Of a DNA stretch of 64,000 bases, positions 50,513-59,807 are shown piece after piece. This stretch comes from Alphaproteobacteria bacterium (GTDB lineage: Bacteria; Pseudomonadota; Alphaproteobacteria; MPNO01; UBA830). Location of the stretch: NCBI GenBank assembly GCA_965243135.1, contig OZ251539.1, forward strand, positions 64,001-128,000. Direction: 5' to 3'. Both the position numbers and the translations under genes were made by a program. The notes under the pieces were generated by a model. That model was given only the letters and a program-made list of their open reading frames with translations. It did no database searches and was not told where the DNA came from. How positions within the stretch are numbered: position 1 is the first letter of the stretch; every line of letters starts with the position of its first letter.

Positions 50513-50818
50513 ATGAGCTCTGAAACCAGGACTGCGGGCGAGTTGCGCGAGCATCTGGTGGAGAAGGCGACCGCAGACGCGGAGTTCCGCGCCCGGCTGC
50601 TGAGTGATCCGAAGGCGGCGATCGAGCAGGAGTTGGGCATCGCCATCCCGGCGTCCCTGTCGATCGAGGTCCACGAAGAGGACGGCGCGACCGCGCATCT
50701 GATTCTGCCCCCCGACAGCAAGTTGAACGAAGGCGATCTGCAGACGGCTGCTGGTGGCCGCAGCTTTTTGGAGTCGCTCTTCCCCCATAGTGGGGGTAAT
50801 CCTACGAAGGATTGGTAG
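50513..50818 (+). CDS. NHLP (nitrile-hydratase-like leader; proteusin-type) RiPP precursor
   Basis: Leader motifs EKATADAEFRARLLSDPKAAI, VHEE, HLILP, LNEGDLQTAAGG; core RSFLESLFPHSGGNPTKDW; RBS AGGAG. Confidence 0.93.
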   Translation: MSSETRTAGELREHLVEKATADAEFRARLLSDPKAAIEQELGIAIPASLSIEVHEEDGATAHLILPPDSKLNEGDLQTAAGGRSFLESLFPHSGGNPTKDW

Positions 50819-50853
50819 TCCCGCCGGCCGCTCGGCGGTCCTGCGGGCTCGTG

Positions 50854-51960
50854 ATGTCGAGTCCGTGTCCCGCGGTCGAGACGGCAGAGCCCACGTCTGC
50901 TGCCCACGGTGCGCCTCGCGCCCCAGGGGCGGTGCTCGCGGAGCTCCGCCCGCTGATACCGCGAGTCCTGCTCGACGGCCCCGGATGGGACCGGTTGACG
51001 GCTTGCGCCGCGAAGCTGCCGGGCGCCGGATTGGGGACGACCCTCGGTTGCGAGTTCCGGCTCGGCGAGGACGCGCCGGCGGCGGACCTGTTCGTGGTGG
51101 TCAGGCCGGGGAGCCCGTTCGCGCAGCACTTCATCCGCCGCGGCGAGGCCGCCCGTCCGGGCTCGCCGGCAGCGGCGCTGTCCCGGTATCTCGTCCGGAT
51201 CGGACAGGCCGACTCCGAGCTGCGCGGATGCATCGCCGGGACGATGCTCGAGTACGACCTGGCCGAGACGCCGGCCGACCGGCGGCCGGAGCCGGGCGTG
51301 TTTCTGAAGGTGCGGCTCGCGGAGGAGCCCGACCCGCATGACGGCCCGCAGCCCCTGCCGGTCGCGGCGCTGGCGGACGCGGTGGGCTGGACCGACGGGA
51401 AAGAGGCGCTGCGGTGGGTGGCGCGGGCGCTGGCGGCGTTGCCCCCGGGCGCGAGGGTCGCTCACGTCGGGGCGTTGCCGAGCCGGACGCCGCGGGCGGT
51501 GCGGCTGGTGGTCCAGGAGATCGGGCGCGACGAGATCGCCGGCGCGCTGGAGCGGTTGGGCCGGCGCGCCTCGGTCCGTCCGGCCGCGGAGATCCTGGCC
51601 GGCCTCGGGGACTGTTGCCCCCGGTTCCGGCTGTCGGTGGACGTGGCCGCCGCGGGGCTGTTGCCCCGGCTCGGCCTGGAACTGTACCACCCGGGATCAT
51701 GGGACCACGGACCGGACGGTTGGCTCACCACGGGGCGGAGCGACTGGCGACCGGTGGTGGAGCGGCTGGCGCAACGCGGCTGGTGCCTGGCGGCGAAGGC
51801 GCAGGGGCTGCTGAAGTGGTGCGCGCTCGACAGGATGTACGACCGCCGGGGCGTGTTCCTCGTCTACAAGGGGATCAACCACGTCAAGCTCACGGTCACC
51901 GACGCCGGGGTCGACGCCAAGGCGTACGCCGGCATGACCTGCTTCCCCATGCAGGATTGA
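50854..51960 (+). CDS. Putative RiPP maturase, ABBA-fold-like peptide prenyltransferase
   Basis: Directly follows the precursor; motifs GCEFRL..ADL, LEYD, PGVFL, VRLVV, LGLELY and NHVKL..AKAY resemble the alternating beta-strand/KxY pattern of aromatic prenyltransferase barrels. Start could be 50812, 50851 or 50854. Confidence 0.55.
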   Translation: MSSPCPAVETAEPTSAAHGAPRAPGAVLAELRPLIPRVLLDGPGWDRLTACAAKLPGAGLGTTLGCEFRLGEDAPAADLFVVVRPGSPFAQHFIRRGEAARPGSPAAALSRYLVRIGQADSELRGCIAGTMLEYDLAETPADRRPEPGVFLKVRLAEEPDPHDGPQPLPVAALADAVGWTDGKEALRWVARALAALPPGARVAHVGALPSRTPRAVRLVVQEIGRDEIAGALERLGRRASVRPAAEILAGLGDCCPRFRLSVDVAAAGLLPRLGLELYHPGSWDHGPDGWLTTGRSDWRPVVERLAQRGWCLAAKAQGLLKWCALDRMYDRRGVFLVYKGINHVKLTVTDAGVDAKAYAGMTCFPMQD

Positions 51961-51965
51961 CCTGC

Positions 51966-52150
51966 ATTTCTCGTACCGGCGGCGGCGCGCGTCCCTGCGG
52001 ACCCCCCTCCCGACCTCCCCCCTGTCAGGGGGGAGGAGCGTCAATGGTTCTTTCCCGTCTCCCCTTCTTCTCCCTCTCCCTGGCAGGGGGAGAGTCGGGG
52101 TGGGGGTCGCGCCCAGGGGGGAGGAGCGTCAACGGCTCCCTCCCGCCCCG
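51966..52150. repeat. Composite palindromic (REP-like) intergenic element, copy A
   Basis: ATTTCTCGTACCGGC then CCCCCCTCCCGACCTCCCCCCTGTCAGGGGGGAGGAG...; a related copy lies at 58539-58700. Confidence 0.8.
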
Positions 52151-58243: not shown

Positions 58244-58340
58244 AGCGCGACGCCTCCCGATTTCCCGTCAATGCCTCTGGCGGCGGTTTGAAGTATCCCG
58301 AACCGGGACGCCGCCGGAATTTTCGTCGCTGGATCGGTCC

Positions 58341-58573
58341 CGCGGACAGGCGGGACAGTATATACCCGTTCACGGCCGTTTAGCGTATTTCTCGTACCGG
58401 CAGGGATCGAGGGTTTCGCGGACAGGCGGGACAGTATATACCCGTTCACGGCCGTTTAGCGTATTTCTCGTACCGGCAGGGATCGAGGGTTTCGCGGACA
58501 GGCGGGACAGTATATACCCGTTCACGGCCGTTTAGCGTATTTCTCGTACCGGCAGGGATCGAGGGTTTCGCGG
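58341..58573. repeat. Perfect tandem repeat, 3 x 76 bp
   Basis: Units start at 58341, 58417 and 58493: cgcggacaggcgggacagtatatacccgttcacggccgtttagcgtatttctcgtaccggcagggatcgagggttt. Confidence 0.95.
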
Positions 58574-58700
58574 CGTCGCGTCCGGTCGGCCCCCCTCCCG
58601 ACCTCCCCCCTGTTCAGGGGGGAGGAGTGATAACGGCTCCCTCTCCCTTGCAGGGGGAGGGTCGGGGGTCGCGCCAGGGGGGAGGAGCGCGAACGGGCCC
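58539..58700. repeat. Composite palindromic (REP-like) intergenic element, copy B
   Basis: Shares ATTTCTCGTACCGGC, CCCCCCTCCCGACCTCCCCC and GGGGTCGCGCC..AGGGGGGAGGAGCG with copy A, in the same orientation. Confidence 0.8.
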
Positions 58701-58721
58701 TGCGGCGTCCCCGTTCTCTGG

Positions 58722-59807
58722 ATGACTTTCATGGACAAGCGGGTAGTATCGTGTTTCCGATGTCCCGAGCGCGAAGCGGAGATCCCCGTCGTCATGCGCG
58801 AAGCATCCGGACCATTCGTCGGCGAACCCTCGCCGGATGGCGGCTGCGCCGTCCCGGTCCCGTTGCGGCTCCGGGAGGCGGCGCGCGACGCCGTGGACCG
58901 GGGCCTCGCCTTTCTCGAGGCCGCCATCCGTCCCGACGGGGCCTGGACTTCGCGGTGTTACGACAACCTGGAGCTCGACGGACCCGCGAGGGAAGAGCAG
59001 GCTCCCTTCGTCGCCGCCCTCGGCGCGCTCACCCTGGCGGTTTGCGACGACCCCAGGTCCGCGGCCATCCGCGACCGGTCGGGGGAGTTCATCGTCCAGT
59101 CCATGAGCTATCCGGGCGTGTGGCGTTACTGGCCGCATCTCCCGAACGATCTCGACAGTCTCAGCGTCTGCTCCATGGCGATTCCGCGACACCCGTGGGT
59201 GTTGTTCGCCAAGAACGTCGGATGTCCGCCGGCGGCGCGGGACGACCGGGGCAGGTTCAGGACCTGGCTGACCCCGCCCACCGACGCCAACGCCATGGAC
59301 GTGGACAGCGTGGTGAACGCCAACGTCGTCGGTTACCTCGCCTTTCAGGGTCGCGACGCGTCGGGTGCGCGGGCGGCGGAGTGGCTCGCCGGTCTGGTCC
59401 GGGAAGGGAGCGGCGAGGGGAGCTCCCATTACTATCCCGACGTCCTGGACCTCTACGACGCCGTTGCCCGCGCCCGCGATCGGGGCGCGCCCGCGTTCCG
59501 GGACCTCGGGGTCCCGCTCGCGGACCGGATCCGGGCCCGGCGCGGGGCGGACGGCGGCTACGGCGATACGCTGCGCACCGCGCGCGCCCTCTCCGCCCTG
59601 CACCTCCTCGGGGCCGCGCCGGAGGGCGAGGACCTGTGGGCCACGCTCGAGCGGATCCTGCGCCGGCAACGGCCCGACGGAAGCTGGCCGGAGCATCTCT
59701 TCTGGCGGGGGCCGACGCCGCCGAGCCCGCCGACCGTGGGTTTCGCCTGCGAAATGCTCGACACCGCCTCGTGCATCGAGGCCCTCGTCCGGTCGGAACG
59801 GCCATGA
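58722..59807 (+). CDS. Monodomain class II terpene cyclase-like protein (prenyltransferase/squalene-oxidase repeat, alpha6/alpha6 barrel)
   Basis: QW-like motifs AVDRGLAFLEAAIRPDGAW and ILRRQRPDGSW; GVWRYW followed by PNDLDSLS (aligns with PDxDDTA); DVDSVVNAN; HYYP. Start may be 58794. Confidence 0.7.
   Translation: MTFMDKRVVSCFRCPEREAEIPVVMREASGPFVGEPSPDGGCAVPVPLRLREAARDAVDRGLAFLEAAIRPDGAWTSRCYDNLELDGPAREEQAPFVAALGALTLAVCDDPRSAAIRDRSGEFIVQSMSYPGVWRYWPHLPNDLDSLSVCSMAIPRHPWVLFAKNVGCPPAARDDRGRFRTWLTPPTDANAMDVDSVVNANVVGYLAFQGRDASGARAAEWLAGLVREGSGEGSSHYYPDVLDLYDAVARARDRGAPAFRDLGVPLADRIRARRGADGGYGDTLRTARALSALHLLGAAPEGEDLWATLERILRRQRPDGSWPEHLFWRGPTPPSPPTVGFACEMLDTASCIEALVRSERP

Follow-up and report, generated by a model that had tools for sequence, protein, structure and literature searches.

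What does a peptide biosynthetic cassette produce when its two candidate tailoring enzymes are hardly recognized by sequence models? This question is raised by a ~10 kb cassette for a ribosomally made peptide with post-translational modifications (RiPP) in a 64,000-nucleotide stretch of alphaproteobacterial DNA (GenBank assembly GCA_965243135.1, contig OZ251539.1, positions 64,001 to 128,000 of the forward strand), to which we refer as the window. The cassette consists of six genes, coding for a precursor of the NHLP (proteusin) type, a protein of 368 amino acids (aa), the subunits ABC2, C39-ABC1 and HlyD of an NHLM exporter with its two ATP-binding cassette (ABC) proteins, and a protein of 361 aa (Table 1). 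A first-pass annotation, made from the letters of the window alone, had proposed that the 368-aa and the 361-aa proteins are a prenyltransferase and a terpene cyclase that act on a Trp residue of the precursor. Following structure predictions and genome comparisons, we consider it fairly probable that the cassette makes an exported peptide with an isoprenoid chain on its terminal Trp, and that this chain is closed into rings by a second, separate enzyme. More familiar maturases were not seen, as the same annotation had noted. No YcaO, LanM, radical SAM or halogenase family member was found by Pfam and NCBIfam models among 35 window proteins, a set that comprises the six cluster proteins, 25 other large open reading frames (ORFs) with high third-position G+C (GC3) and four flanking ORFs, with small ORFs left out.

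The precursor is recognized by the model for NHLP leaders with 63.5 bits (cut-off 50.9) over residues 9–82, and an AGGAG motif stands 8 nt upstream of its ATG. An 82-residue leader that ends in ...TAAGG is followed by the 19-residue core RSFLESLFPHSGGNPTKDW. This core is free of Cys and closes with a C-terminal Trp (W101), exactly as first described; a second GG occurs inside the core (SGGNP). An alignment of 32 precursors gives the usual picture of a RiPP family: a conserved leader, a GG motif (G81 and G82, at least 90% conserved), an unconserved core and, as a single invariant core position, the final W101.

The reading frame of the 368-aa protein begins 35 nt past the precursor stop. A model computed with AlphaFold2 (AF2) from an alignment of 43 relatives reached a predicted local distance difference test (pLDDT) value of 87.7 and a predicted template modeling (pTM) score of 0.87, and it contains five strand-strand-helix-helix repeats. 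The PDB matches that Foldseek lists for this model are exclusively ABBA prenyltransferases (E 1.2e-5 to 5.6e-4, probability 1.00), with EpzP, NphB/Orf2, DMATS1, FunA, FgaPT2, TleC, PriB, CymD, IptA, AmbP1, CloQ, PagF, LimF and DciF among them. The Trp and indole enzymes FgaPT2, CymD, IptA, PriB and DMATS1 and the peptide enzymes PagF and LimF thus belong to the matches. The nearest named cluster in the language-model-based ESM Atlas is Trp_DMAT (score 0.90). Residues E67, D78, E133, R211, R217, D263, H343, K345, K356 and Y358 are invariant in the alignment and Y134 is at least 90% conserved. In the model, charged or aromatic invariant residues form i, i+2 pairs on predicted strands (E67/R69, H343/K345, K356/Y358), and the invariant R69, R211, R217, H343, K345, K356 and Y358 are placed on or beside predicted strands. 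The family is large: an E threshold of 0.001 yields 3265 representative clusters, and one of 1e-30 still yields 306. Nearly all of the best 150 of these 3265 relatives are stand-alone proteins of ~350 aa, and none of the 150 is fusion-sized (the longest has 498 aa). Judged by its predicted fold, the 368-aa protein is most likely an ABBA-fold prenyltransferase, and the barrel on which the first-pass proposal depended is indeed what the model contains.

By sequence alone the 361-aa protein is only weakly cyclase-like; it is the structure search that places it among class II terpene cyclases. Its AF2 model (alignment of 44 relatives) has a pLDDT of 88.6 and a pTM of 0.86. The top ~30 Foldseek matches are all class II terpene cyclases, the best ones with E 1e-12 to 1e-9 and a query TM-score (TMq) of 0.63–0.70. 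They include the class II domain of drimenol synthase (E 1.2e-12, TMq 0.70) and the monodomain cyclase MstE (E 1e-10 to 1e-9, TMq 0.65–0.67, target TM-score (TMt) 0.67–0.69); the small enzymes 8pak and 8paj and MstE reach TMt 0.66–0.70, and lower ranks are taken by drimenyl diphosphate synthase, squalene-hopene cyclase and oxidosqualene cyclase. The family profile A2 matches the QW repeats of squalene-hopene cyclase with E 1.9e-15, and MstE is absent from the matches of the sequence profile. The candidate acid motif reads D143-L-D145-S146, and many relatives carry DLDDTA. D143 and D145 are at least 90% conserved, W75 is conserved, and C150 and H157 are invariant. HMMER aligns the stretch L-P-x-D-L-D-S-T-x-x-C-S with DADSTA of 8paj and DDLDTTS of 9mhs, a drimenol synthase by its entry name, and we take DADS and DLDT to be the catalytic motifs of these two enzymes. 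In DxD-type motifs of class II cyclases the middle Asp is the proton donor. The protein may in truth start at the Met encoded at position 58794. Among proteins of 817–2330 aa we found no longer, fused form of this cyclase; fusions of ~700 aa fall outside this size range. As modeled, the 361-aa protein is most likely an MstE-like, single-domain class II terpene cyclase, in line with the class II assignment of the first-pass annotation.

Do these two enzymes belong with the precursor? A scan with the prenyltransferase profile, restricted to one genome per species, returned 39 loci from metagenome-assembled genomes labeled as Alpha- and Gammaproteobacteria, Binatia, Vicinamibacterales, Spirochaetia, Dehalococcoidia/SAR202, Gemmatimonadota, Latescibacterota and others. 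NHLP ORFs are present in 34 of the 39 loci, up to 18 in one locus and usually directly upstream of the prenyltransferase gene, and 24 of the 39 contain NHLM ABC1. Core counts leave out locus L019, since L003 already represents the same isolate through another assembly. Of the 127 NHLP ORFs that remain, 71 end in Trp and 95 have Trp among the last six residues, against a background of 3.7% Trp-ending ORFs among all ORFs of the prenyltransferase loci. Precursors with the leader type of the window, from loci with a prenyltransferase at least 66% identical to that of the window, end in Trp in 63 of 69 cases (61 of 66 distinct C-terminal sequences). Their cores are 8–27 residues long and otherwise variable, with D (25) or N (24) as frequent penultimate residues. 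The Trp-terminal cores that the first-pass annotation had suggested to survey prevail in this leader type. A second leader type travels with a paralogous prenyltransferase; Trp is the last residue in 4 of its 25 precursors and usually stands a few residues before the end. The most distant prenyltransferase homologues (29–31% identity, loci L035 and L036) lie beside NHLP precursors with short, Cys-rich, Trp-free cores (for example GGECIC and VCQC), and these enzymes may have a different acceptor.

The cyclase gene shows linkage of its own, as had been anticipated. Of 38 distinct loci, 11 have a homologue no more than 10 kb from the prenyltransferase. Among the 18 close relatives the number is 10 at this distance, and two others carry the gene 4.6 kb and 0.8 kb past the fetched stretch, which brings the count to 12 of 18. 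In all six of the loci L064–L069 the stop codon of the prenyltransferase gene is followed at once by the start of the cyclase gene, and in the three that extend past the cyclase (L064–L066) NHLP precursors come next. Distant cyclase relatives (40–45% identity, ~433 aa) consist of an N-terminal NHLP domain fused to the toroid. Such fusions occur in loci L043–L063 (for example L044:9959-11299), on metagenome contigs where the fusion gene stands after HlyD-ABC1-ABC2. Of the fusion loci, 14 reach at least 1.5 kb past the fusion gene, and 13 of the 14 have a prenyltransferase homologue no farther than 7 kb away. A separate precursor with the core LCCCW is also present, and the clusters contain YcaO, whose gene in L044 comes immediately before that of the prenyltransferase. 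The fusions lack a conserved GG motif and have a highly conserved linker behind their NHLP domain; judged from these alignments, the domain looks like a leader mimic built into the enzyme. A likeness between the window core and this linker (SLEFLR.T..DPAPP) was too weak and was dropped. A search with the fusion P0236 against 168 genomes of the phylum of G003, run without a positive control, gave no match.

The exporter completes the cassette. The first-pass annotation had called a full NHLM triad. All three genes are present, and both ABC subunits pass their family models: ABC2, which starts with GTG at 55063 behind a GGAG motif, scores 717.3 bits (cut-off 709.4), and C39-ABC1 scores 903.2 bits (cut-off 853.3) with a Peptidase_C39 match at residues 28–155 (E 2.8e-32). 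The HlyD adaptor is best matched by the corresponding NHLM model and remains below its cut-off (80.1 against 156.2 bits; HlyD_3 1.1e-10). Hence, the NHLP and NHLM models do match the cluster proteins, and for the adaptor the call stands as a best model only.

We infer the following pathway. The ribosome would make the 101-residue NHLP precursor. The ABBA-fold enzyme would bind the structured leader and, with a housekeeping prenyl diphosphate as donor, place an isoprenoid chain on the indole of the core's C-terminal Trp. The presence of a cyclase implies that this chain is at least C15, and the donor would probably be C15 or C20; PDB titles name farnesyl- and geranylgeranyl-benzoates as ligands of MstE and farnesyl diphosphate as that of drimenol synthase. 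By analogy with MstE and with the C domain of NctPC, a fused enzyme discussed below, the 361-aa cyclase would then protonate the terminal double bond of the attached chain via D145 of the D-L-D-S motif and thereby trigger ring formation. Finally, the C39 domain of ABC1 would cut after Gly-Gly, and ABC1, ABC2 and HlyD would export the lipidated peptide; cleavage and export are assigned from the family equivalog models.

Several observations weigh against this pathway. For the prenyltransferase, no Pfam or NCBIfam family matches at E up to 0.01, including Trp_DMAT (PF11991) and PTase_Orf2 (PF11468), PDB sequences match a profile of the 43 relatives at chance level (E at least 0.56), and the TMq values of the Foldseek matches are moderate (0.36–0.55). 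A predicted complex of this enzyme with the precursor scored 0.46 compared to 0.26 for the best control, with contact agreement between runs of at least 51% and a partner pLDDT of at least 69. Of 80 solved complexes, 58 attain this mark, and so do 2 of 110 mismatches, counts that apply only roughly to a prediction run on our own alignments; just 7 of the 80 solved complexes passed with a score of 0.60 or less, and both passing mismatches fall in the same range. The prediction lends weak support to the pairing. For the cyclase, the Pfam family SQHop_cyclase_C matches below its cut-off (E 1.4e-3, 18.1 against 26.1 bits), the third Asp of the classical DxDD motif is replaced by Ser, and the transaldolase AprG shares the toroid fold (Foldseek E 4e-5, at lower rank). 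In the window the three exporter genes stand between the cyclase and the prenyltransferase. The cassette holds no polyprenyl synthase gene, and because the only two such genes of the genome are located at 3.59 and 4.27 Mb, the donor would have to be drawn from the pool of the cell. Since the frame of the neighboring aminotransferase gene is broken, part of the cassette appears to be decaying. Finally, many prenyltransferase clusters lack the cyclase, as do three of five genomes searched whole (two Gemmatimonadota and one SAR202), so that it counts as an accessory in part of the prenyltransferase family, dispensable for prenyltransferase function.

Some of these points would fit a simpler product, a linear prenyl-Trp peptide made by the prenyltransferase alone, with a cyclase-like protein that uses another isoprenoid or that is inactive on account of its D-L-D-S motif. 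The 27 of 38 distinct loci without a cyclase within 10 kb, the three whole genomes without one, the position of the window cyclase on the far side of the exporter and its low Pfam score all speak for this possibility. Yet the cyclase gene lies inside a 98–99% identical, co-transferred block (see below), it adjoins the prenyltransferase in L064–L069, and its relatives are fused to NHLP domains within prenyltransferase clusters. Furthermore, its DLDS sequence aligns with the motifs of 8paj and of drimenol synthase 9mhs, and both Asp residues are conserved. Taken together, we regard a linear end product as rather unlikely.

We find it improbable that the toroid protein is no terpene cyclase at all, either a peptide- or lipid-binding partner (a chaperone, immunity or docking protein) or some other, possibly metal-dependent enzyme with C150 and H157 as ligands. 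Cys is an unusual residue for a class II cyclase. Invariance of both residues, the shared fold of AprG and the docking-device look of relatives that fuse the toroid to a leader-like NHLP domain with no conserved GG would agree with such a role. However, the first ~30 structural matches point uniformly to class II terpene cyclases, the acid motif and QW-type repeats are retained, 8paj and 9mhs also align a His at the position of H157, and neither the protein farnesyltransferase beta subunit nor LanC is among the listed matches. Equally improbable is an enzyme that modifies another site (a Ser, Thr, Tyr, His or Arg side chain, or the N-terminus freed by cleavage) or that uses a non-isoprenoid donor, with Trp as a mere recognition or export element. 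In its favor, among the Foldseek barrels are enzymes that act on His (FunA, LimF), Arg (DciF) and Tyr (PagF, DMATS1), 6 of the 69 window-type precursors lack the terminal Trp, the second leader type has Trp near the end and the distant L035 and L036 cores have none. Against it, the final Trp alone among the core positions is invariant, the cores have no other residue type in common, and the precedents NctPC, ChrPC, PalQ and ComQ, so far as the excerpted sources describe them, all act on Trp.

Returning to the pathway of prenylation followed by cyclization, the cassette is most likely a split two-gene variant of a fused prenyltransferase-cyclase maturation that has been described before. The abstract of the 2024 report by Hubrich et al. 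is said to call these maturases "commonly" fused, and split forms may already be noted in that paper or its supplements. Excerpts from a 2026 review (PMC13290415, citing Hubrich et al. 2024) describe NctPC as a barrel prenyltransferase fused to an MstE-like cyclase, which attaches geranylgeranyl (C20) to Trp and then cyclizes it, and ChrPC as a fused enzyme with a P domain of the trans-isoprenyl diphosphate synthase (trans-IDS) type. Such fusions had been mentioned in the first-pass annotation, and the statement is borne out by this review. NctPC is the maturase of a cyanobacterial proteusin (Hubrich et al., Chem 2024), and the product is named steromaze in a second paper (PMC13647313). Like the window system as proposed, NctPC combines an MstE-like single-domain class II cyclase, a Trp acceptor and a ribosomal precursor (PMC13290415, in excerpt). 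By its description there, NctPC differs in being one polypeptide where the window has two genes, and the 19-residue core of the window has another sequence and carries Trp as its last residue. Among the titles and abstracts listed by our literature searches we found none that describes a split pair of barrel prenyltransferase and monodomain cyclase acting on NHLP peptides.

Other known systems share parts of this design. MstE from merosterol biosynthesis (PDB 6sbb–6sbg) is, like the window cyclase, a single alpha/alpha barrel of ~350 residues, and PDB titles indicate that the prenyl chain on which it works has been joined to an aromatic ring beforehand. In contrast to the proposed peptide substrate, the substrate of MstE is a small prenylated benzoate, and the two proteins are only 16–17% identical. 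PalX from Paenibacillus alvei resembles the window precursor as an NHLP-type peptide with a conserved C-terminal Trp, which is prenylated by PalQ in a reaction enhanced by the leader (PMC10853753, in excerpt). Unlike the window enzyme, PalQ is all-helical and ComQ/trans-IDS-like, and as far as the same excerpt describes it, the Pal system has neither a cyclase gene nor an NHLM triad. The cyanobactin F-family prenyltransferases PagF and LimF are ABBA barrels that act on ribosomal peptides and match the window model at E 3e-4 to 6e-4 in Foldseek, with no detectable sequence similarity. In the review excerpts (PMC13290415) this family is leader-independent and uses short-chain donors, which sets it apart from the enzyme we propose.

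The LCCCW precursors provide a link to the srp clusters of sponge microbiomes, which according to excerpts of two papers (PMC10286304, PMC10858898) encode a precursor SrpE with the core LCCCW, the YcaO protein SrpC and the brominase SrpI. These clusters share with the window an NHLP precursor, a C-terminal Trp, which is the residue modified in srp, and a sponge-metagenome setting. Moreover, the LCCCW-core clusters L044–L060 contain a homologue of the window prenyltransferase and an NHLP-fused homologue of the window cyclase. The window prenyltransferase and one from an srp-type cluster are full-length homologues (27% identity, E 4e-32). Unlike srp, the window lacks YcaO and halogenase genes, its core is Cys-free and its cyclase has no NHLP domain. 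The same excerpts on srp make no mention of prenylation of srp peptides, nor do those of the srp expression preprint mention prenyl or cyclase genes; a review on sponge peptides and a 2026 preprint mention neither srp nor prenylation. As a tentative and somewhat doubtful extension, the barrel enzyme and the small cyclase could be the missing maturases of a very large proteusin family of sponge symbionts that includes the widespread LCCCW srp peptides. The non-cleavable NHLP domain of the srp cyclase would then be a leader mimic that docks to the leader-binding machinery or to the precursor, and the window would hold a minimal mobile form passed between phyla together with a shared core library. 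If this is true, LCCCW srp peptides would end in a prenylated, ring-closed isoprenoid on the C-terminal Trp.

How did the cassette reach this genome? The segment 50436..60488 is 98–99% identical, as one block, to locus L001, the nearest copy, which is also labeled Alphaproteobacteria. The flanks of L001 match the genome of the window at ~82% in scattered pieces or not at all, and the two genomes differ in size (3.56 Mb for L001, 6.10 Mb in one contig for the window). From these comparisons the cassette appears to have been transferred recently and to move as one block. At its left edge stand four copies of a 20-bp repeat, located at 49960, 50027 (minus strand), 50249 and 50422 (plus strand) and absent from 100 shuffled sequences, and a fragment of a transposase-type helix-turn-helix ORF, of which bases 49715..49964 are 99.6% identical to L001. 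At the other end, the aminotransferase remnant, with an ATG that overlaps the cyclase stop codon (ATGA), is common to the window and L001 up to 60488 and to L002 up to 60718. The Aminotran_3 match covers only profile positions 108–300 in one frame, and pieces are spread over all three frames, which reflects either a pseudogene or assembly indels. More widely, the cassette is shared by genomes labeled as several phyla. The identical core ARPRGQEWDPRTW occurs in L003, L004, L006 and L008. The cores ARPRGQEWDPRTW, FERHEGFYNINW and GDWNITSDW recur in genomes labeled Alphaproteobacteria, Binatia and Gammaproteobacteria. Sponge-metagenome runs contain the stretch (six of them with at least half of the sampled words; all runs come from eight studies), and no RNA run is among the listed sequencing runs that contain it.

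Table 1. Positions of the cassette genes and of adjacent features in the window.
Feature	Positions	Strand	Basis or remark
NHLP (proteusin-type) precursor, 101 aa	50513..50818	+	TIGR03793
ABBA-fold (PT-barrel) prenyltransferase candidate, 368 aa	50854..51960	+	AF2 model and Foldseek
NHLM export ABC transporter subunit 2 (permease/ATPase, N-terminal extension)	52151..55063	-	TIGR03797
NHLM export ABC subunit 1, N-terminal C39 peptidase	55087..57318	-	TIGR03796, Peptidase_C39
HlyD-type periplasmic adaptor of the NHLM exporter	57335..58243	-	TIGR03794 (best model), HlyD_3
Single-domain class II terpene cyclase candidate, 361 aa	58722..59807	+	AF2 model and Foldseek
Class III aminotransferase remnant	59804..60890	+	Aminotran_3, 1.8e-30
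Helix-turn-helix transposase-like ORF fragment, 100 aa	49674..49976	+	HTH_23 2.6e-8, HTH_28, HTH_Tnp_1 1.6e-5
20-bp repeat, four copies	49960..50441	both	at most 2 mismatches
rRNA operon (16S, tRNA-Ile, tRNA-Ala, 23S, 5S, tRNA-Met), complete	44319..49307		directly upstream of the cassette

The G+C content of the window is high, and real genes were told from spurious ORFs by GC3 and by family matches. The exporter triad runs convergently to the precursor and prenyltransferase genes, and the separate prenyltransferase and cyclase genes flank it at a distance of 6.8 kb from one another. Many of the ORFs seen on the plus strand from 52 to 58 kb are antisense artefacts; those at 52100..55144, 55144..57618 and 56783..58291 lie opposite the transporter genes, have Arg/Gly/Pro-rich translations and were rejected. 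The helix-turn-helix fragment and the inverted pairs of the 20-bp repeat sit between the rRNA operon and the cassette. An rRNA operon that ends in tRNA-Met is common in Alphaproteobacteria.

Elsewhere in the window, an island of lower G+C (17573..28083, 0.57–0.63) contains an Mrr-type nuclease fused to a ResIII/DEAD helicase (18918..22127), an AAA_14/DUF4143 ATPase (22419..23318) and a DUF5131 fragment (27670..28083), and it is probably a defence or mobile island. A large ORF on the minus strand (61716..63998) runs off the end of the window with at least 760 aa and a GC3 of 0.92 and is matched by no Pfam family; towards its C-terminus, which closes with ...RLRW, it is rich in Gly with alternating residues. 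The same genome holds a second proteusin locus (G000:C1, ~3.78–3.81 Mb) with several weaker NHLP ORFs, the two YcaO genes of the genome (3784065 and 3810772) and its own HlyD, ABC1 and ABC2 genes (3794135–3800901). Trp_halogenase has no match anywhere in this genome.

The first reports of peptides with cyclized isoprenoids date from 2024 and concern fused enzymes. A version split over two genes would provide separate, portable catalysts for late-stage lipidation and for ring formation at a C-terminal Trp. Because natural cores vary widely, with 61 distinct C-terminal sequences of type-A precursors ending in Trp behind cores of 8–27 residues, the prenyltransferase appears to depend on the leader and on the terminal Trp and to tolerate almost any core, a tolerance that is just what peptide engineering needs. 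The prenyltransferase family, with its thousands of representative clusters, has no curated model. The link to LCCCW suggests that a well-known family of sponge peptides may bear an isoprenoid modification.

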